NCBI GenBank assembly: GCA_049601855.1
Contig: JBMYQZ010000001.1
Span: 1 to 30,418, forward strand
Direction of reading: 5' to 3'
From: Limisphaerales bacterium
GTDB taxonomy: Bacteria > Verrucomicrobiota > Verrucomicrobiia > Limisphaerales > JAYPXF01
Length of the DNA: 30,418 nucleotides
The notes beneath the pieces are model-generated. The model saw nothing but the letters and a program-made list of their open reading frames with translations. It was not told the DNA's origin and did not search any database. Both the position numbers and the translations under genes were made by a program. This document shows positions 5,829-16,250 of the stretch, in pieces; the first letter of the stretch is position 1, and each line of letters starts with the position of its first letter.

Positions 5829-6962
5829 ATGAGCAAGTCATCCACTGTGAACGTCGCCATTGTCGGACTCGGTTTCGGCGCGGAATTTATTCCGATTTAC
5901 CAGCGGCATCCGCAGGCCGACATGGCGGCGATCTGTCAACGGACGGAGGCGACGCTGAAGGAGGTGGGAGACCGGCATAGCGTGGAGAAGCGATTCGCGG
6001 ATTACGATGAATTGTTGAAGGATGACTCGATCGATGCGGTGCACATCAACACGCCGATTCCGAATCATGCGGAACAGACGATCAAGGCATTGAAGGCTGG
6101 CAAGCACGTGGCCTGCACGGTGCCGATGGCGACGACGGTTGAGGACTGCAAAGCGATCGTGGAGCTGACCCAAGCAACCGGATTGAAGTATATGATGATG
6201 GAAACCGTGGTTTATGCGCGGGAGTTCCTGTTCATGAAGCAGCTCTACGACGAGGGGAAACTCGGCAAGCTGCAGTTCATCAAGGCGAGTCATCAGCAGG
6301 ACATGGACGGCTGACCGAACTACTGGCCGGGACTGCCGCCCATGCATTACGCGACGCATTGTGTGGGGCCGGCTTTGGGATTGGCCCGCAACGAAGCGGA
6401 GTTCGTGAGTTGTTTTCCGAGCGGGACGATTCGCGAGGAATTGCACGGGCACTACAATTCGCCTTTCGCGGTCGAGAGCACGCATGTGCGTTTTCGCAAC
6501 AGCGACCTGAGCGCTCACATCTACCGCTCACTCTTCGATGTGGCCCGGCAGTATCGCGAGAGCATGGAGGTCTATGGTTCGAAGCAGGCGGTGGAATGGC
6601 CGCTGATCGAGGGGAAGCCCCTGGTATTGCACACGGCCAAAAAGCCGGAACCGGAGATTCCCGAAGAGGTGGAGTGCCCGGACTTCGGTTATCTGCTTCC
6701 GGACGAGATCGCGCCCTTCACGCAAGGTGGTGTCTATGGCGGTGAAGATGGCGACGATCACCTGAGCTTTACGCAGGGCGCTGGCCATGGCGGTTCGCAT
6801 CCACACCTCGTTCATCAGTTCGTCCAATTGTTGCGGGGTGAAGGCGAGGGCTATCCGAACGCCGTGCAATCAGCCAACATCACTTTGACCGGCATTCTGG
6901 CGCATGAGTCCGCCTTGAAAAATGGCGAGCTTGTCCGCTTGCCCGAATGGAGCTTTTCGTAA
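5829..6962 (+). pseudogene. Gfo/Idh/MocA-family oxidoreductase interrupted by in-frame TGA at 6312-6314
   Basis: VAIVGLGFG Rossmann motif, DAVHINTPIPNH, and GKHVAC. ORFs 5817-6314 and 6342-6962 are in the same frame and read QDMDG*PNYWPGLPPMHYATH. Confidence 0.85.
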
Positions 6963-6973
6963 TTCTCCCCCGA
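6937..6973 (+). repeat. 37-bp imperfect direct repeat, copy 1 (copy 2 at 10224-10260)
   Basis: GCTTGCCCGAATGGAGCTTTTCGTAATTCTCCCCCGA versus GCTTGCCCGAATGAAACTTTTCGCAATTATCCCCCGA: 33/37 identical. Confidence 0.85.
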
Positions 6974-6978
6974 TCGGC

Positions 6979-7028
6979 ATGAATAGATTCCTGCTTTGTG
7001 TCCTTTGTGCCTTCGTGGTTCACACCTC
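6979..7028 (+). repeat. 50-nt signal-peptide module shared with 8507-8556, containing a nonamer-periodic repeat arm
   Basis: 45/50 identical to 8507-8556, counted from each ATG; the last 35 nt match 34/35. The reverse complement contains AACCACGAAGGCACAAAGGACACAAAG. Confidence 0.9.
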
Positions 7029-8379
7029 TGAAGGGGCGGACAATATTAACGTCTTGTTCATTGCGGTGGATGATCTGCGTGATTGGGTTGGGCATTTGCG
7101 GGGGCATCCGAACGCAAAGACACCGAATATCGATCGTCTGGCCAAACGTGGAGTTTCCTTCACCCGCGCGCACTGCTCGGCTCCGCTCTGCAACCCGTCA
7201 CGAATCAGTCTGCTGACGGGGATTGCCCCGTACCGCTCCGGCGTTTATGGCAACGGCGAACGATTGCGCGACAAACTCCCGGATGCGCACACCTTGATGC
7301 AGCGCTTTCGGGCCGCCGGTTACACTGTGCGTGGCAGTGGGAAGATCTTTCACGGAACGGGGGCCTACGACACGGCTTCCTGGGACGACTATTTCGTACC
7401 CGGCCGCAGCAAAAAACGACCGGCAAAACCTCGCGACCAGAGTTTGTCCAAATCGGCGTGGACACCCTGGGGGCCGCTCGCTTCCACAGATGAGAAAATG
7501 TTCGACGGCAAGGTGGCTTCCTGGGTCGTTGCGCAGTTGAAGAAATCCCACGGCCAACCGTTCTTTCTCGCCTGTGGGCTCACCAAACCGCATCTGCCCT
7601 GGCAGGTTCCCCAGACGTATTTTGATCTGCACCCATTGGATGAAATTCAGCTCCCTGCCACCCGGAAGGGCGATCTGGAGGACGTTCCCGCCTATGGCAA
7701 GAAGTTGGCGCGGGAGGTTTACGATCCTTCCGGTGAGAGGAACTTTGCGGTGAAGCCGAATGGTGATCACGCTAACGTGCTGGCGAACAAGCAATGGCGC
7801 AAAGCGGTTCAGGCCTATCTCGCGACCATCAGCTTCGCCGACGCTCAAATCGGTCGGATTCTTCGCGCACTGGAACAAAGTGAACACGCCGACAACACCC
7901 TTGTCGTGTTGTGGGGCGATCACGGCTGGCATCTCGGCGAAAAGGATCACTGGCGCAAACATGCGCTCTGGGATGTATCCACCCGCCCGCCGCTGATCTT
8001 TGCTGCTCCGAATGGAATTACGAAAGGCCGACTCTGCCGCCGTCCGGTGAGCCTGATCGATATCTATCCCACGCTCCTCGAGCTGTGCGGACTTCCGAAG
8101 CAGACACGCTTGGACGGACAGAGCCTCAAACCCCTCCTGAAGGATCCCGATCGGAAATGGAATCACCCGGTCGTCGTGACCTACGGCCCCAATAACCACG
8201 CCGTGCAAACGGAACGTTGGCGCTACATCCAATACCACGACGGAGGAAAGGAACTCTACGATCAAGACCGCGATCCCCATGAGTGGATCAACCTGGCGGG
8301 GATTCCCGAGCATCAGGAGATTGTCCGCGAACTGCAGGGGGCGCTGCCAAGATCGATCGCAACCAAGCCCAGAAAATGA
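6979..8379 (+). CDS. Secreted S1 sulfatase (choline-sulfatase/iduronate-2-sulfatase-like)
   Basis: Start ATG 6979 (MNRFLLCVLCAFVV signal), NVLFIAVDDL, CNPSR, GKIFH, KPHLPW, and WGDHGWHLGEK. Confidence 0.93.
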   Translation: MNRFLLCVLCAFVVHTSEGADNINVLFIAVDDLRDWVGHLRGHPNAKTPNIDRLAKRGVSFTRAHCSAPLCNPSRISLLTGIAPYRSGVYGNGERLRDKLPDAHTLMQRFRAAGYTVRGSGKIFHGTGAYDTASWDDYFVPGRSKKRPAKPRDQSLSKSAWTPWGPLASTDEKMFDGKVASWVVAQLKKSHGQPFFLACGLTKPHLPWQVPQTYFDLHPLDEIQLPATRKGDLEDVPAYGKKLAREVYDPSGERNFAVKPNGDHANVLANKQWRKAVQAYLATISFADAQIGRILRALEQSEHADNTLVVLWGDHGWHLGEKDHWRKHALWDVSTRPPLIFAAPNGITKGRLCRRPVSLIDIYPTLLELCGLPKQTRLDGQSLKPLLKDPDRKWNHPVVVTYGPNNHAVQTERWRYIQYHDGGKELYDQDRDPHEWINLAGIPEHQEIVRELQGALPRSIATKPRK

Positions 8380-8460
8380 ACTACGGAATACTCAGAACAC
8401 ACGGAAGGCTGACGCTGGTTGGAGTTCGCGCTTTAGCGTGTTTCGGGCAATCTCAAGTTC
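8378..8460. repeat. Degenerate 83-bp inverted-repeat element, same family as 12405-12486
   Basis: 8379-8408 matches the left arm of the 12405 element at 26/30. The right arm 8431-8460 pairs with the left arm at 19/30, with a 23-nt spacer. Confidence 0.65.
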
Positions 8461-8506
8461 GCAGGTGAATCTCCTCCGTCCGAGTAAAACGAAACACCCA
8501 AACATC

Positions 8507-10099
8507 ATGAAACAATTCCTACTTGGTGTCCTTTGTGCCTTCGTGGTTCACACCTCCGCGGCGAAGCCGCATAGCGATCAAACGGCACGTTTGCCGAACA
8601 TCGTCTTCTTTCTCGTCGATGACCTGGGCTGGTCGGATGTCGGCTGCAATGGAAGCACGTTTTACGACACACCGAACATCGATCGGCTGGCGGCTGAGGG
8701 AGTCCGGTTTACGGACGGCTATGCGGCCTGCCACGTGTGTTCCCCGACCAGAGCGAGTATCCTGACCGGAAAATACCCGGCCACGCTCAATCTTACCGAT
8801 TGGCTCAATGGCAGAAGCAATCGTCCCTACCAGGTCCTCTTGAACGCTGAGAAAGCCATGAGTCTGGACGAGAAAGAGACGACCCTGGCGGAAGTGTTGA
8901 AGGTCGCAGGTTATGCCACCGCCTTGTTTGGCAAGTGGCATCTTGGAAGAGGCACGAGTCCGACCGAGCATGGTTTTGACATTCACGTGCCGCATTCGGT
9001 GAATTCAAATCTGGGGAGACGAGGATTCTACAATCCCAAGAAGATTCCGGGACTCGATGGAGGAGAATACGTGACCGATCGTTTGGCCGAATTGGCGGCG
9101 CAATACATTGATGAGAAAAAGGACCGGCCGTTTCTGTTGTATATGTCGCACTTCTCCGTGCATGACCCAATTCACGGCCGGCCTGATCTGGTCGAAAAAT
9201 ATCGGAAGAAGTTGGCCGGGCTGCCGGTCCGTTCCGGGCCCGACTTTATTCTCGAAGGAAACCCTGACAGTCCGACCTGTCCGAGCAGAGCTGAGCTGGA
9301 TGAGCTGATAAAGCTGCCGAAGTATCGGGATACCTACACGACCTACTCCAACGATCTCGTGAAGGTGAAGCAAAAGCAGGACAATGTTCAGTTCGCCGGA
9401 ATGGTTGAATCAGTCGATCAAAGTCTGGGAACGCTCATGGCAAAGCTGAAGGAGCATGGCATTGATGATAACACCATCGTCATCTTCATGTCCGACAACG
9501 GCGGAATGTCCGTCATGAACGGAACTCCCAGTTTCAAAACAACCAAGGACAAGATTGATACGCGTGCGTCCTCATCAAATCTACCGCTACGTGGCGCGAA
9601 AGGCTGGCTCTACGAAGGTGGCATCCGGGTTCCGCTGATCGTGAAATGGCCGCACCAGGGAAAAGTTGGAACGGTATGTAATGAACCGGTCGTCAGCACT
9701 GACTTTTTCCCCACGATTCTGGAAATGGTAGGTGTGGAGAATGAAATCACTGACATCGATGGGAAGAGCTTCACCCGTTTGGTGCGCGGGGAAGAGATGG
9801 ACCGGGGTCCGATCTTCTGGCACTTCCCGCATTACAGTAATCATGGAATGCAGAGCCCGGGCGGCGCCATTCGGAATGGGGATTACAAGCTTCTCGAATA
9901 TTTCGAGAACGGAACGGTTCAGCTGTTTAATTTGGCAAATGACATCGGTGAGCAGAACGATTTGTCGAAAATTGAAGTGCGGAAAACGAAGGAACTCACC
10001 GAGAAGCTTCGTCAATGGCGCAAAGATGTCCATGCGCAGATGATGAAACCCAATCCCGATTATGATCCATCCTCGGACTTATGGTCCGGTAAGAAGTGA
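8507..10099 (+). CDS. Secreted S1 sulfatase (arylsulfatase A-like)
   Basis: Start ATG 8507 (MKQFLLGVLCAFVV), PNIVFFLVDDLGW, CSPTR, FGKWHLG, SDNGG, and KGWLYEGGIRVP. Confidence 0.95.
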   Translation: MKQFLLGVLCAFVVHTSAAKPHSDQTARLPNIVFFLVDDLGWSDVGCNGSTFYDTPNIDRLAAEGVRFTDGYAACHVCSPTRASILTGKYPATLNLTDWLNGRSNRPYQVLLNAEKAMSLDEKETTLAEVLKVAGYATALFGKWHLGRGTSPTEHGFDIHVPHSVNSNLGRRGFYNPKKIPGLDGGEYVTDRLAELAAQYIDEKKDRPFLLYMSHFSVHDPIHGRPDLVEKYRKKLAGLPVRSGPDFILEGNPDSPTCPSRAELDELIKLPKYRDTYTTYSNDLVKVKQKQDNVQFAGMVESVDQSLGTLMAKLKEHGIDDNTIVIFMSDNGGMSVMNGTPSFKTTKDKIDTRASSSNLPLRGAKGWLYEGGIRVPLIVKWPHQGKVGTVCNEPVVSTDFFPTILEMVGVENEITDIDGKSFTRLVRGEEMDRGPIFWHFPHYSNHGMQSPGGAIRNGDYKLLEYFENGTVQLFNLANDIGEQNDLSKIEVRKTKELTEKLRQWRKDVHAQMMKPNPDYDPSSDLWSGKK

Positions 10100-10223
10100 C
10101 ATACCTCGCCCAACGTTACCCGAGCAGCCGCCGACGCACATCAGCCCCACATGAATACAATCTCTCGCCACTTCATTCAGCATCTCCGCGGCGAATCCGC
10201 ATGGCGGGCAAGCGGCACGCTTG

Positions 10224-10260
10224 GCTTGCCCGAATGAAACTTTTCGCAATTATCCCCCGA
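10224..10260 (+). repeat. 37-bp imperfect direct repeat, copy 2 (copy 1 at 6937-6973)
   Basis: 33/37 identity to 6937-6973; ends 8 nt before ATG 10269. Confidence 0.85.
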
Positions 10261-10268
10261 ACCACGTC

Positions 10269-12362
10269 ATGAAGAACTTGCTCCTTACCGCCCTGTTCGC
10301 GCTGTCGGCCGTTTTCGCCGAAGCCGCCAAACCCAAAGTCGTATTTATCTCCGGCAAGCCGAGTCATGGCCCCATGAGCCACGAGCACCGCGCCGGGAAT
10401 CTGATCCTCGCCAAGCGTCTGAACGCTTCCGGTCTCGCCAATGCAGTCGTGCTCCCGGACATCGGTTACCCCGAGGACTCATCCGTGCTCAAAGATGCCG
10501 ACACGATCGTGATTTTCTGCACGGGTCATGGCGGCCATGTCCTCAATCCCAAGCTGAAAGAGTTCGACGCGCTGATGAAGAAAGGCGTCGGAGTGGTGAT
10601 GATCCACTGGACGACCGAAGCTGTGAAGGGCGAGCCCGGCGAGAAGTTCCTCCAATGGATGGGCGGCTTCTGTGATCTCGATTGGTCGGTGAACCCGCAC
10701 TGGATTGCCGACTTCAAACCGCAGAAGCACGAGATCTGGAACGGCGTCAAACGCTTCAAGGTCAACGATGAGTGGTACTACCACATGCGCTTCGTCAAAG
10801 ACCGCACTGGACTCACCCCGATCCTAACCGATCTCCCCGGACCCGAAACATTGAAACGCCCGAACGGCCCTCGCAGCGGCAACGTCCATGTCCGGCGCTC
10901 CGTTGCCAACGGCGAATCCCAACACGTCGCCTGGGCCTACCAGCGGCAAGGCATGAAAGGTCGCGGCTTCGGCTTCACCGGCGGCCACGTCCACATGAAC
11001 TGGCAGAACGACAACTACCGGAAGATCGTGCTCAACGCAATTCTCTGGACCGCTGGCGTCAACGTCCCGAAGAACGGCGTACCTTCCGCCACGCCCAGTG
11101 ACGCGGAAATGCGTTCCAATCTCGACGACAAGAAGAAGCGCGCGCCACGCCGCCAAGCGAAGCCTTCGACCGCTTCGAAGCCGGCTGCTAAGAACGAGCC
11201 CCCTCCCAGCTTTGATCAGTTGCGCCAACAAGCCATCAAGCGTCTTGATTCACGCAAGTCTTTGAACCTTCTCACCAAGTCGCTGAACACCACCAAGAAT
11301 CCCAAAACCCAAGCCGCCCTCATGCAAGGGATGGTCGCCGGTCTCGCCGGCCAACGGAATGTCCCCGCACCCGCCGGTTGGGGACAAGCCATGGCCAGCC
11401 TCTCCAAGAGCAGCAACGCTGACGTCGTCAAATACTCCCTCCGCCTCGGACAGATCTTCGGCGTCAAAGCCGCCACCCAACAGGCCATCGCCGCCGTCAA
11501 GAATACCAAGGCTTCCGCAGACGTTCGACGCAGCGCGTTGCAATCCCTCGTCACCCAACGTTCTCCCGAAGTGAAGGGCCTGCTCCCCTCGCTCCTCAAC
11601 GACAAGGCTCTCCAAGTCGATGCCATCCGCGCCTACGGGGCCATCGAAGACAACAACGCCCCCAAACAAATCCTCAAGCGTTACGCGTCCCTCGATTTCC
11701 AAGCCAAACGCGCCACCGTCGAAACCCTCGCCTCGCGCAAGAACTACGCCCAACAACTCTTGGGCGCCATTAAGAACAAGACCGTTCCGAAGCAGGATAT
11801 CCCTACTTACCTCGCCCGCAACCTTTCCCAACTCCTCGGCAAGTCCTTCGACCGCGCCTTCGGCAAGATCGACTCTCTCTCCCAAGACAAGGCCGCGTTG
11901 ATCAACAAATACCGCAAGCTCTTGGATGACAAACACATGGCCAAGGGAGATCCTCAGAAGGGGCGCCAGATGTTTGAATTGGTCTGCGCCTCCTGCCACC
12001 AGATCTACGGCAAAGGCGCCCACATCGGCCCCGACCTCACCGGCTCCAATCGCGGCGACATCGATTACATCCTCCTCAACATGATCGACCCCAGTGCCGA
12101 TGTCCCCGACGCCTACAAGTCGGTCACCATCAACACCAGGGACGGCCAGGTATTGGTCGGTACCCTCGCCGCCGAAGACGGCCAACGCGTCGTCCTCAAC
12201 ACCGTCGGTCAAAAACTCACCGTCCTAAAGTCGGACATCAAGACCCGCACCGTCTCCAAACTCTCCATGATGCCCGAAGGCCTCTTGCCTGCCTTGTCCG
12301 ACTCCCAAGTCATTGACCTCGTCAAATACCTCCAGACCAAGAAGCAAGTCGCCCTTCCTTGA
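10269..12362 (+). CDS. Secreted ThuA-like domain + helical repeats + PVC-type c-type heme-binding (CxxCH) protein
   Basis: Signal peptide MKNLLLTALF, ThuA-like N-domain (HGPMSHEHRAG, GGFCDLDWSVNPHW, RGFGFTGGH), and C-terminal GRQMFELVCASCH...IGPDLT...SMMPEGL resembling the Pirellula/Verrucomicrobium heme domain (TIGR02603). Confidence 0.88.
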   Translation: MKNLLLTALFALSAVFAEAAKPKVVFISGKPSHGPMSHEHRAGNLILAKRLNASGLANAVVLPDIGYPEDSSVLKDADTIVIFCTGHGGHVLNPKLKEFDALMKKGVGVVMIHWTTEAVKGEPGEKFLQWMGGFCDLDWSVNPHWIADFKPQKHEIWNGVKRFKVNDEWYYHMRFVKDRTGLTPILTDLPGPETLKRPNGPRSGNVHVRRSVANGESQHVAWAYQRQGMKGRGFGFTGGHVHMNWQNDNYRKIVLNAILWTAGVNVPKNGVPSATPSDAEMRSNLDDKKKRAPRRQAKPSTASKPAAKNEPPPSFDQLRQQAIKRLDSRKSLNLLTKSLNTTKNPKTQAALMQGMVAGLAGQRNVPAPAGWGQAMASLSKSSNADVVKYSLRLGQIFGVKAATQQAIAAVKNTKASADVRRSALQSLVTQRSPEVKGLLPSLLNDKALQVDAIRAYGAIEDNNAPKQILKRYASLDFQAKRATVETLASRKNYAQQLLGAIKNKTVPKQDIPTYLARNLSQLLGKSFDRAFGKIDSLSQDKAALINKYRKLLDDKHMAKGDPQKGRQMFELVCASCHQIYGKGAHIGPDLTGSNRGDIDYILLNMIDPSADVPDAYKSVTINTRDGQVLVGTLAAEDGQRVVLNTVGQKLTVLKSDIKTRTVSKLSMMPEGLLPALSDSQVIDLVKYLQTKKQVALP

Positions 12363-12365
12363 CTC

Positions 12366-12388
12366 GTAGCTCAGGCGGCTCGCCTGAG
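12366..12388 (+). repeat. GTAG-type REP hairpin
   Basis: GTAG CTCAGGCG gct CGCCTGAG: an 8-bp perfect stem directly after a GTAG tetranucleotide, 3 nt past the stop codon, with no U-tract. Confidence 0.65.
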
Positions 12389-12404
12389 AACCAGCAAATG
12401 TTTT

Positions 12405-12486
12405 CAACCACGGAATACACCGAAGACACGGAAGGGGAAAATTTCTCTTCGTCTTCTTTCCGTGTCTTCGGTGTATTCCGTGGTTG
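12405..12486. repeat. 82-bp element with perfect 29-bp terminal inverted repeats
   Basis: CAACCACGGAATACACCGAAGACACGGAA (12405-12433) is the exact reverse complement of 12458-12486, with a 24-nt spacer. The arms have CAC at 9-nt periodicity. Confidence 0.95.
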
Positions 12487-12523
12487 CTCCTCTTTTCGAT
12501 CTTCCTGCCCCCATTTTCGTGCC

Positions 12524-14851
12524 ATGAAAAAACTTTTCCTTCTTACCGCTCTGCTCATCACTACATCAGTGGTTTCCGCCGCCGTCCTCGGCCAAAAGCA
12601 CCGCACCAGCAATGCCCCCTTCCTCAAGCCCAAGGAAGCCCTCGCCAAGATGGCCATCCCGGACGATTTCGAAGTCAGCATATTTGCTTCCGAACCCACC
12701 ATCGGCGAACCAATCGCCTTCACCTTCGATGACAAGGGCCGCATCTGGGTCGTCGAGAACTACAACTACGTCAACCGCCGCGCCCACAAGGAAACCAACC
12801 AGGTCACCCGCATCCAGATCCTCGAAGACACCGACAGCGACGGCGTCTTCGACAAGAAGAAGACCTTCACCGACAAACTCACCTTCAGCTCCGGCATCGC
12901 CGTCGGCTTTGGCGGCGTCTACGTCGGCTCTCCGCCCAACCTTACCTTCATCCCCGACAAGAACGGCGACGACAAACCCGACGGCCCTCCCGAGATCCTC
13001 CTCGACGGCTGGGGTCATCACGACCGCCACGAAACCCTGAACAGCTTCATCTGGGGCCCCGACGGTTGGCTCTACGGCTGCCACGGGGTCTTTACCTCAT
13101 CCTACGTTGGCAAACCGGGCGCGCCCAATTCCGAACGCGAGTTCATCGACGGCGGCATCTGGCGCTGGCACCCCACCAAGAAGGAATTCGAGATCTTCGC
13201 CCGCGGTCTCTCCAATCCCTGGGGCTTTGACTTCAACGACCACGGACAAGGCTTCGCCACCTGCTGCGTGATCCCGCACCTCTTTCACGTCGTGCAAGGC
13301 GGCACCTACCACAAACAAAGCAAACCCCACCTCAATCCCTACGTCTACGACTACATCCCCACCATCCGCGATCATACGCACCTGAGCGCCCACGGCGGCG
13401 CCCGCTTCTACCTCGCCGACACCTTCCCCGCGAAATACCGCGACCAACTCTTCATGTGCAACATCCACCAGCACCAGCTGCTGACGGATGTCATGAAGCC
13501 CAAAGGCTCCAGCTACATCGGCAGCCACGGCGAGGATTTCATCAGCATGAACGACCTCGCCTGGGTCGGCTTCAGTCTCGAGACCGGCCCCGACGGCGGC
13601 GTCTACATCCTCGATTGGCACGACACCGACGTTTGCGGCAACGCCATCAACTTCCCCAACAGCGGCCGCATCTACCGCGTCATGCCCAAGAACGCGCCGA
13701 AGATCGAACGCCCCAACATCCGCGCCCTGTCCGACCTAGAACTGGTGAAGCTGCAAAACCACCCCAACGACTGGTACGTCCGCCAAGCCCGCCTCCATCT
13801 CCAAATGCGCGCTGCTGCAGGCAAGCTCGACAAGCAGAGCGCCACCCGGAAGTTGGAGCAACTGCTCACCACCGCCAAATCCTCCGGCAAAAAACTCCGC
13901 GCCCTGTGGGCCCTCCACGTCATCGGAAGTCTTGGTGAGCAACGACTCCACCGCCTCCTCGGCTACGGGGACGAATACATCCGCGCCTTCTCCATCCAGT
14001 TCCTCATTGAGGACAAGCAACCTTCGGTTGCATCGTTATCTCGCTTCGCGAGCATGGCCCAAAACGACAAGTCCCCCGTCGTCCGCCTCTACCTCGCTTC
14101 CGCCTTGCAACGGATGCCGTTCGAACAACGCTGGCCCATCCTCGACGCCCTCTCCCAACACGCCGAAGACGCCGAAGACAACAACATCCCCCGCATGCTC
14201 TGGTTCGCCCTCGAACCCATGGTCCCCGCTCACCCCGAGTTGTCCCTTCAACTGGCCATGAACAGCAAGCTCACCAAACTCCAGGAACTCACCGCCCGCC
14301 GCATGGTCAGCGGCGACCTCCCCACCCGGCCTCAACGAAAAAAGCCGACACGCAGTGTCAAGGACACCCGCCCCATCTTCCTGGGCAAGGCTCCAGTGTC
14401 GCATCAAAAGGAAATCCGAAAAGTCGCCCCCGGCTTCCAAGCCTTTGACCTGGGCCTCCGCGGCGCCATTCCCCACAAGGTCTTCCGCAACGAATTCGCC
14501 ATCATGACCCACCCCTTCAGCCGCGAAAAACCCGCCCGCCTGGTGCGTCATCTCGAAGTCCCCAAAGGAAAAACAACGAAGCTGAAACTCCGAGTCAGCC
14601 ACCACCCCCACGCCGACTGGCAACTCCGAGTCCTTGCCGGAAAGAAAGTCCTGAAAGACACCATGGTCAGTTCCAAGACCGTCGGCCAAGACGAATGGCT
14701 CAGCCTCGAGTTTGACCTCTCCAAATACGCCGGCCAGCACCTCGACCTCACCCTCGAATGCAAAGCCAACAACTGGGCCAACGAATGGGCCTACTGGAGC
14801 GACGTCAAGGTCGTGAGCAACGGAATCACTTTGAGTCGTTTCCGAAACTAG
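12524..14851 (+). CDS. Secreted PVC-type putative membrane-bound dehydrogenase-domain (beta-propeller) + HEAT-repeat protein, without a CxxCH domain
   Basis: Start ATG 12524 (MKKLFLLTALL). FEVSIFASEP...PIAFTFDDKGRIWV, DTDSDGVFDK, WGPDGWLYGCHG, NPWG, GPDGGVYILDW and GRIYRV resemble TIGR02604. HEAT-like LRALWALH and VVRLYLASALQR follow. No CxxCH is present. Confidence 0.88.
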   Translation: MKKLFLLTALLITTSVVSAAVLGQKHRTSNAPFLKPKEALAKMAIPDDFEVSIFASEPTIGEPIAFTFDDKGRIWVVENYNYVNRRAHKETNQVTRIQILEDTDSDGVFDKKKTFTDKLTFSSGIAVGFGGVYVGSPPNLTFIPDKNGDDKPDGPPEILLDGWGHHDRHETLNSFIWGPDGWLYGCHGVFTSSYVGKPGAPNSEREFIDGGIWRWHPTKKEFEIFARGLSNPWGFDFNDHGQGFATCCVIPHLFHVVQGGTYHKQSKPHLNPYVYDYIPTIRDHTHLSAHGGARFYLADTFPAKYRDQLFMCNIHQHQLLTDVMKPKGSSYIGSHGEDFISMNDLAWVGFSLETGPDGGVYILDWHDTDVCGNAINFPNSGRIYRVMPKNAPKIERPNIRALSDLELVKLQNHPNDWYVRQARLHLQMRAAAGKLDKQSATRKLEQLLTTAKSSGKKLRALWALHVIGSLGEQRLHRLLGYGDEYIRAFSIQFLIEDKQPSVASLSRFASMAQNDKSPVVRLYLASALQRMPFEQRWPILDALSQHAEDAEDNNIPRMLWFALEPMVPAHPELSLQLAMNSKLTKLQELTARRMVSGDLPTRPQRKKPTRSVKDTRPIFLGKAPVSHQKEIRKVAPGFQAFDLGLRGAIPHKVFRNEFAIMTHPFSREKPARLVRHLEVPKGKTTKLKLRVSHHPHADWQLRVLAGKKVLKDTMVSSKTVGQDEWLSLEFDLSKYAGQHLDLTLECKANNWANEWAYWSDVKVVSNGITLSRFRN

Positions 14852-14958: not shown

Positions 14959-15858
14959 CTATTCAACTCCACGCTTGCGAACGTCCCGCAATGCCGCGAA
15001 CCCCTGCAAGCTCGCTCCGATCCCATGTAAGCGTCGCGCACCGGTCTTACGTCGCTTGCCGAATCGATCACGGAATTCTTCAAACACCTGGTTCACGAAC
15101 TCTTTCGACCCAAACACGGCACCATCCGTCAGATACCGTATTCGCAGCCGTAAAACCTCCGCCGGTTCCAACCGTCCCCCTTGCTTGACCACCTTTAGAA
15201 TCTGTTCACGCGAGAGGGCCTTCTTACCTGCCCGACCGGCGTCACCCGCGTAGACCATCATCAGGCAACGGTACTCCCCTGATGCCTGGCGCCAGTTGGT
15301 CGAATCGCACACCCACGAAATCGACCGGCGAATCGCCGTATTCCCCGCCATCGCCTCGGCATGTCCGCAAAAACGATAATCCTTCGGATCCTCCACCAGT
15401 CCCGCCCGCACCGGATTCAAATCGATATACATCGCCACCGTTCGCAAGGACTCCGACGTATCCTCCACCAGCACACTCTTGAACCGCTCCGCCCACAAAG
15501 TGCCAAACCGTTTGTGTTTCTTGTTGTACCACTTCGAAAAGCGCTGCTTCAGCGCCCGCATGAACTGCGAAACATCCCCCATCTGCCCCAACAACCGTCC
15601 CCGAGTATCCTTCCCCAACACTCCGCGGTTTTCGAAATCTTCCGCTACCAACTGCACCCAAGGCTCTCGTCTCCCGTAATACTTCACCATCCGCCGGCAC
15701 AACTCCGCGTCCGGAACCTCCTCCGAATCCAACACCCGCACCAGCAGGTGAACGTGATTGGTCATCACGCAATACGTCACGATTTCCACCCCGCAGAATT
15801 CTGCGACCCGCCACATCATCCGCCGGAAAAACTCCTTCTCTTCATCCCCCAGCAACAT
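14959..15858 (-). mobile_element. REP-associated tyrosine transposase (RAYT, Y1 HUH, IS200-like), N-terminally truncated
   Basis: YCVMTNHVHLLV (HUH), MRALKQRFSKWYN, GTLWAERFKS, and catalytic-Tyr motif MYIDLNPVRAG. The family's N-terminal YHxxSR segment is missing. Confidence 0.9.
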
Positions 15859-16250
15859 ATCCCCGCCCTGCCGGGATTGAGATGAACGTATTGAATCAGG
15901 TTGGTCAAATAGTCGCTGCGATAGTTTGATCCTGCTATTGCCTCGTTTTCAACCAGGATGGACTTGTATCTTCCTGCAAACAGATGGCCACGCAACCGGT
16001 TACGGGCATTGATCCTCTGAGTAAAGGTTTGCTGAAACCAGGTCATTCCTGCCACGAGATTGGGTTCCGGAGTCCTGAAAACCAGGTGATAGTGATTTGA
16101 CATCAAAACCCAGCAATAAACCTCCCAGCCCGTTTTCTCGATAGCTTCTTCAAAAGTCTTAATGAAAATACGGCAGTCTTCGTCGTGAAACACGATCTTT
16201 CCACGATGATTGCCCCATGGAACATGTCCCCTTGGGTGTTTTCGGGGAAG
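15859..16250 (-). pseudogene. Second, different RAYT/Y1 transposase, N-terminal fragment fused out of frame to the first
   Basis: CWVLMSNHYHL (HUH), GHLFAGRYKSILVE, and QYVHLNPGRAG, after which it runs into the first RAYT in another frame. Its degenerate upstream sequence reads PRKHPRGHVPWGNHRGKIVFHDED with no clear start codon. Confidence 0.85.

Follow-up and report, generated by a model that had tools for sequence, protein, structure and literature searches.

The in-frame survival of selfish palindromic repeats inside bacterial genes is already known, mostly as that of neutral passengers. Rickettsia palindromic elements are 100-150 nucleotides (nt) long, are inserted whole in protein interiors and encode surface-exposed segments without known role (Ogata et al. 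2000, cited in PMC2759123 and PMC3733652). An enterobacterial RU-2 repeat, a miniature inverted-repeat transposable element (MITE) of the YPAL type, forms part of one predicted signal peptide, that of Yersinia pestis YPO1552 (Delihas 2007, PMC2759123), and this was the only report that we found in the literature on a repetitive extragenic palindrome (REP), a REPIN (a REP doublet) or a MITE as a signal peptide. REP and REPIN sequences are short imperfect palindromes with a GTAG or CGTC head that are associated with RAYT (REP-associated tyrosine) transposases, and REPs at the N-termini of open reading frames (ORFs) are regarded mostly as annotation artefacts (PMC3733652). Here we describe a hairpin repeat of the order Limisphaerales (Verrucomicrobiota), encountered in a 30,418-nt stretch of DNA, contig 1 of the draft genome of a Limisphaerales bacterium (G000); this stretch is the window whose positions give the coordinates below. 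Two tandem genes of the window, encoding sulfatase 1 and sulfatase 2, share a 27-nt core near their 5' ends, and we consider it probable, at roughly 75%, that this core is an arm of a mobile hairpin repeat that was reused as the hydrophobic segment (h-region) of signal peptides and spread among genes for exported proteins. What would be new in this case is that the arm serves as a defined functional module, repeatedly, across unrelated enzyme families and several genomes, in one hydrophobic frame from which Arg codons are absent.

The initial annotation of the window had likened this arrangement to the Rickettsia palindromic elements, and part of the parallel holds: in both cases a dispersed palindromic repeat is found between genes and is also translated in frame inside functional genes. 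The likeness ends there, as in the present case a single 27-nt arm is used, at the N-terminus, where it appears to supply the h-region and recurs in many exported proteins, and as the two repeats have no sequence relationship and belong to different phyla. From RU-2 in YPO1552, a single hypothetical protein of 144 residues, our case differs in its extent (coding arms in at least 25 genes from at least eight genomes), in the defined exported enzyme families that carry the arm, in an apparent signature of selection against Arg codons and in signs of copying from gene to gene. Like REP and REPIN sequences (PMC3733652), the repeat lies mostly between co-directional genes, abuts stop codons, occasionally overlaps ORF ends, and is abundant in some genomes and absent from relatives; unlike them, it has no GTAG or CGTC head, its ends being AACCAC and GTGGTT, and each arm comprises three tandem 9-nt units. 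With bacterial MITEs (Correia/NEMIS, RUP, ERIC and Nezha) it shares terminal inverted repeats, a lack of coding capacity, gene-adjacent insertion, presence/absence polymorphism and, in one genome (G266), a conserved core, but the loops in G000 are short and not conserved, and neither a parent insertion sequence nor a target-site duplication was identified.

Sulfatases 1 and 2 both belong to Pfam family PF00884, carry an SGSH_C tail and are encoded in tandem. The observation from which the analysis started, that 45 of the first 50 nt of the two genes are identical (6979-7028 versus 8507-8556), was reproduced, whereas only 14 of the following 50 nt match in an ungapped comparison; a repeat finder extends the pair to 60 nt (6969-7028 and 8497-8556, 85% identity). 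The whole proteins are 25% identical by BLASTP, which confirms that the mature enzymes are only distantly similar. They are not recent paralogues, and their description as unrelated needs correction: as two PF00884 members, they are distant homologues. The shared stretch contains the 27-nt core, CTTTGTGTCCTTTGTGCCTTCGTGGTT, which consists of three tandem units of about 9 nt and ends in GTGGTT; its reverse complement, AACCACGAAGGCACAAAGGACACAAAG, and the encoded peptides had been given correctly at the outset.

In both proteins the core is translated at the extreme N-terminus, directly before the Pfam Sulfatase domain, and the domain starts (Table 1) leave an N-terminal segment only of signal-peptide size. 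The N-terminal peptides, MNRFLLCVLCAFVVHTS in sulfatase 1 and MKQFLLGVLCAFVVHTS in sulfatase 2, show tripartite features, with a positively charged n-region (MNR or MKQ) followed by FLLCVLCAFVV and then by HTSAA, and the same layout recurs in the carriers with PSCyt1, cytochrome c and chondroitinase B domains. Judged by their position and by their n-, h- and c-regions, these segments are putative Sec-type signal peptides of the signal peptidase I class, and export driven by them is suggested by these features together with the known extracytoplasmic location of the enzyme families.

The genome, a 982-contig draft of 5.9 Mb with 58% GC and 84% completeness, holds 20 copies of the core at up to six mismatches, compared with none in the reversed-sequence genome, and the mismatch histogram forms a discrete cluster rather than a continuum. 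Nine copies are coding and lie at N-termini, within the first ~25 codons of long ORFs and always in the frame L-C/G-V-L-C/G/S-A-F-V-V. Besides the two window sulfatases, these carriers comprise two sulfatases on contig C163, one on C250, diverged copies on C16 and C574, a ThuA+DUF7133 protein (C6) and a PSCyt1/PSCyt2/PSD1 protein (C709), and no partner arm was found upstream of any coding copy. The other 11 copies are intergenic: eight are the arms of four hairpins, three of which lie between genes of a microcompartment operon on C818 and one on C906, and three are single arms. Between the hairpin arms and the signal-peptide core there are 3-5 base differences, and the loops that the arms enclose, 12-55 nt long, vary in sequence from copy to copy. 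The motif is thus not confined to the two genes in which it was first noticed.

Among G000 and its relatives, the core precedes at least six unrelated Pfam families (Sulfatase, ThuA+DUF7133, PSCyt1/2+PSD1, PQQ_2, Cytochrome_CBB3 and Chondroitinase_B) as well as two further proteins without an assigned family, and even the arm-bearing sulfatases are mutually only 25-52% identical in their mature parts. The codons of the arm are minor ones in the genome (CTT, 14% of Leu; TGT, 31% of Cys; GGT, 23% of Gly; GTT, 18% of Val), and the chance of LCVLGAFVV being spelled in exactly these codons under genome usage is 1.2e-5, indicating that the identity of the arms reflects nucleotide-level descent and not convergence. 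Ordinary paralogy or convergence, through a common N-terminus that was inherited or through h-regions preferred in the clade that arose independently, would be in keeping with two PF00884 proteins in tandem and with an AAKPHxD linker that in some sulfatases resembles an old family feature. It is nevertheless scarcely credible as an account of a 27-mer that stands before six unrelated folds, has that minor-codon probability in each peptide, forms a discrete mismatch cluster with zero control matches and lies within 50 nt that are 90% identical between genes whose mature products are 25% identical. In our judgement, a common nucleotide origin of the hairpin arms and the signal-peptide cores is established.

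Each arm is built of three tandem units of 8-10 nt with the form NNNNGTGNN, followed by GTGGTT (AACCAC when read on the opposite strand). Searching with a strict pattern of this structure yielded 27 arms in the genome and none in the control, and the repeat falls into three subfamilies, CTTN, TTCC and ATCT, all with AACCAC/GTGGTT arm ends. The core belongs to CTTN; the arms of TTCC (22) and ATCT (15) are all non-coding. In one of their six frames, the CTTNGTG units read L-[C/G/S]-V-L-[C/G/S]-[A/V]-[F/L]-V-V, nine consecutive hydrophobic or small residues, and among the 18 frames that the three subfamilies offer, this frame 1 is by far the most hydrophobic (mean Kyte-Doolittle value 3.31) and the sole one seen in proteins. 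Signal-peptide use of TTCC and ATCT was considered and rejected, as all their copies are non-coding and their overlaps with long stop-to-stop frames are upstream extensions.

The hairpins have a characteristic position, in which the right arm is directed into the following gene and typically stops ~8 nt short of its start codon. Several hairpins elsewhere, like the single TTCC arm behind sulfatase 1 (Table 1), adjoin a TGA, as TGAACCAC. The intergenic inverted repeat beginning near 12406, which had been taken as kin of the core, is a real and perfect hairpin of related architecture (RNA fold of 12405-12486, -58.6 kcal/mol, z = -12.3). It belongs, however, to the sister subfamily TTCC, its arm agreeing with the signal-peptide core at only 18 of the 28 positions aligned, and the direct relatives of the core are the CTTN hairpins on other contigs. 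An Rfam scan of 6800-12700 returned no family, only sub-threshold microRNA-hairpin look-alikes on this palindrome.

The coding and non-coding arms differ in a manner that bears on the peptide. We classified 88 arms, from the fetched loci and the genome, as 26 coding and 62 non-coding. The fourth base of each unit is variable. In units 1 and 2 of the non-coding arms, 42 of 124 such sites have C, which yields CGT, an Arg codon, in frame 1; among the coding arms 3 of 52 sites do, two of them in a mis-called non-gene and the third giving CTT (Leu). Frame 1 contains a charged residue or a stop in 38 of the 62 non-coding arms versus 2 of the 26 coding arms, one of these two being a mis-call, and the pattern is clear even though its Fisher p of 3e-6 is overstated by a test that treats related genes as independent. 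We propose that selection at the level of the peptide may keep the coding arms free of charged codons. The element was also considered as a donor of the c-region, and this was rejected: after the arm, 'CA' is present in 20 of the 26 coding but only 16 of 80 non-coding copies, a skew that looks like selection and not like part of the repeat.

The near invariance of synonymous core positions across unrelated genes and genomes raises the alternative that the core is retained for a nucleic-acid function, such as the binding of a protein that recognises the iterated 9-nt unit or the pairing with an antisense arm, with the hydrophobic coding secondary. A unit period of about one helical turn, as in an iterated binding site, and the presence of single arms inside other conserved elements (in genome G195) would also fit. 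We hold this to be improbable, given that orthologous arms have diverged at 2-3 of 27 nt, roughly as much as the genes around them, that intact genes on C10, C272, C16 and C574 still contain decayed copies, that only about 5% of the sulfatase genes have the arm, and that the arm regions of the sulfatase 1 and 2 mRNAs have an ordinary RNA fold (z = -0.4 and -0.8).

A search allowing up to two mismatches detected the arm in 40 of the 301 genomes that represented the order and gave no match in the backward control; three of these genomes reach 60, 46 and 36 copies. Of 120 genomes taken from the rest of the phylum, 3 have the arm, each as a single copy. Within the order, the hairpins extend over at least 12 families. 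Coding copies appeared in only two of the families, f1 (G000, G001, G002, G003 and G005) and f30 (three genomes), and all arms examined from the other families are hairpins or single non-coding arms. In G266, arms flank a conserved core of ~95 nt to form a MITE-like element of ~148 nt, and its loci (L182-L191) have further conserved flanks beyond the element, CCGGAACGATTCC... In G195 (L192-L197), a single arm lies inside a longer conserved repeat containing GTAGCGGA, which hints at a link to GTAG-type REPs.

Turnover of the hairpins is apparent in the C818 operon, which we aligned with five genomes of the same genus and family (L141-L145). Three of its gaps are filled by hairpins in G000 (827-898, 1173-1238 and 1551-1659 of locus L134), and two of these hold next to nothing (0-15 nt) in two to three congeners each, showing that hairpins are gained and lost between close relatives. 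What occupies these gaps varies with the genome: CTTN hairpins, a palindrome with a GTAG head, a repeat of GGAGTATT units that ends in GTGGTT, or an additional gene. The operon includes a EutN/CcmL-like gene, and its intercistronic gaps are insertion hot spots.

A transfer from repeat to signal peptide is favoured by four observations: the internal period of 9 nt, the sister subfamilies without coding copies, the broader occurrence of the hairpins and the richness of the non-coding arms in Arg codons. In the reverse direction, the core would have begun as an ordinary signal-peptide segment, and the hairpins and single arms would be its descendants, whether as remnants of gene starts or as inverted duplications. 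That gene-start fragments do reach intergenic DNA is shown by the single arms between genes and by the decayed 5' module at 10152-10223, and in family f1 the coding copies are about as many as the non-coding ones. There is, however, no reason for a signal peptide to consist of three tandem 9-nt units with a terminal GTGGTT, a structure common to two purely non-coding sister subfamilies; hairpins, in up to 60 copies, extend over at least 12 families, against two with coding copies; and CGT, which an h-region could not accommodate, is frequent at the variable positions of the non-coding arms. Such a reversal therefore strikes us as very improbable. The early suggestion that a selfish repeat was exapted as a portable h-region is thus borne out as to shared origin, use before at least six unrelated families and turnover of the hairpins, while the direction is the part that we put conditionally.

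For a transfer from repeat to signal peptide, the following sequence of events can be envisaged. Small hairpin repeats of the order sit in short intercistronic gaps and come and go between relatives, and a single CTTN arm without its partner would become the h-region of a Sec-type signal peptide, preceded by a Met-Lys/Asn-Arg/Gln n-region belonging to the gene itself and followed by a c-region of the His/Gln-x-Ala type. The placement of right arms just ahead of start codons would offer a simple route of capture, by use of an upstream start. Peptide selection would keep the captured arm free of charged codons, and recombination or gene conversion might then carry the arm from the 5' end of one exported-protein gene to that of another, at times together with flanking codons.

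The history of the N-termini can be followed in orthologues. The best within-genus matches to the two sulfatases are only 50-57% identical, and the comparison was therefore made with other lineages. Orthologues of sulfatase 2, at about 75-89% identity, are present in many other Verrucomicrobiota metagenome-assembled genomes (MAGs), and none has the arm; the matches start near residue 27-30 or run through quite different N-termini. The expectation that relatives would keep the mature part and differ in the signal peptide was thus confirmed for sulfatase 2, whose relatives at 80-89% identity have unrelated signal peptides. An N-terminal fragment orthologous to sulfatase 1 (L021) likewise has an unrelated signal peptide, without the arm, before a conserved mature start. 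The contigs that carry the sulfatase 2 orthologues at 80-89% identity (L013-L037) are binned to Opitutales, Pelagisphaera, Akkermansiaceae, Planctomycetaceae, Flavobacteriales and Myxococcales, a scatter that points to horizontal gene transfer or to mis-binned MAG contigs, and one of them (L026) retains the order sulfatase 1 then sulfatase 2.

Closer to G000, one orthologue group (the C16 gene with L093, L094 and L095, 74-81% identical) is polymorphic for the arm, which is present in G000 and G001 and absent in G002 and G003, and the G001 member also has the AAKPHSGQ linker of sulfatase 2. The linker DNA of sulfatase 2 is in turn 95% identical over 43 nt (blastn-short) to that of the non-orthologous C250 sulfatase. 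Modules are therefore shared between genes, as a 60-nt 5' stretch between sulfatases 1 and 2 and as a further ~45-nt linker between sulfatase 2 and a non-orthologous sulfatase, and this sharing, together with the arm polymorphism, indicates that N-terminal modules have been exchanged between sulfatase genes. The copying between genes proposed in the initial annotation is accordingly upheld, with the amendment that larger 5' modules travel as well as the arm. As the mechanism of this spread we infer recombination.

Several points weigh against a transfer from repeat to signal peptide followed by spread, in addition to the non-independence that inflates the Fisher test. The direction of transfer is argued from parsimony and internal periodicity, and no intermediate, such as a full hairpin overlapping a start codon, was seen in G000. 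Signal peptides turn over fast in any case, so that differing signal peptides among orthologues are by themselves weak evidence. Comparison of filled and empty sites gave no clean target-site duplication, with AATGA on both sides of one filled site and none at another. No transposase could be linked to the repeat: the genome has 13 PF01797 (Y1) matches, and at the ten places checked there was no arm within 1.5 kb and thus, unlike for REP and REPIN sequences, no RAYT gene beside an arm, which in a fragmented assembly is no proof of absence. The same fragmentation, over 982 contigs, under-assembles repeats and makes all copy counts minima. Finally, the arm is a minority signal-peptide type in the genome, used by only about 7 (about 5%) of at least 150 sulfatase-domain matches (256 first-look candidates).

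In the window, the two sulfatase genes form a 3.3-kb block (6970-10260) that is absent from the congener G001, in which the ThuA-like gene comes immediately after the oxidoreductase gene; the difference is either an insertion in G000 or a deletion in G001. The features of the block and its surroundings are collected in Table 1. The window also contains Y1 transposase (PF01797) matches, at 15421-16202 on the minus strand.

Table 1. Features of the two-sulfatase region, in window coordinates.
Feature	Positions	Strand	Details
Sulfatase 1 gene	6979..8379	+	466 aa; Pfam Sulfatase domain from residue 24
Sulfatase 2 gene	8507..10099	+	530 aa; Pfam Sulfatase domain from residue 30
Putative signal-peptide coding region, sulfatase 1	6979..7041	+	MNRFLLCVLCAFVVHTSEGA...; read from sequence features, cleavage site not tool-predicted
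Putative signal-peptide coding region, sulfatase 2	8507..8563	+	MKQFLLGVLCAFVVHTSAA; small residues at -3 and -1
CTTN-subfamily repeat arm in sulfatase 1	6994..7020	+	27 nt, translated LCVLCAFVV (putative h-region)
CTTN-subfamily repeat arm in sulfatase 2	8522..8548	+	1 mismatch to the copy at 6994; translated LGVLCAFVV
Linker module of sulfatase 2	8549..8600	+	HTSAAKPHSDQTARLPN; DNA common to non-orthologous sulfatases C250, C10 and C272
Left 37-nt direct repeat bracketing the two-sulfatase block	6937..6973	+	
Right 37-nt direct repeat of the two-sulfatase block	10224..10260	+	89% identical to the left copy
Non-coding remnant of a third sulfatase 5' module, right block edge	10152..10223	+	linker part 86% identical to 8553-8588; arm mostly deleted
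Single left TTCC arm	8379..8408	+	begins on the last base of the sulfatase 1 TGA stop
Intergenic TTCC hairpin	12405..12486	.	29-nt arms, 100% complementary; 24-nt loop

A more far-reaching possibility, which we regard as doubtful, is that the arm acts as a host-specific signal-peptide cassette, in which the 27-nt core is at the same time a patch of homology for recombination, genes for exported enzymes, among them new arrivals such as the two-sulfatase block, are refitted with a host-adapted signal peptide, and the start-adjacent hairpins form a reservoir. Were this true, it would amount to repeat-driven shuffling of protein-sorting signals across the secretome.

The reuse of a hairpin arm as an h-region, which remains our preferred reading, offers a concrete and testable route for the origin and exchange of signal peptides, and may help to explain why close orthologues can have unrelated signal peptides. 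It also has a bearing on annotation, as repeat maskers and start-codon callers could wrongly trim such N-termini in Verrucomicrobiota. More broadly, the very large sets of sulfatase and glycan-degradation genes in marine Verrucomicrobiota may be shaped by recombination at repeats.

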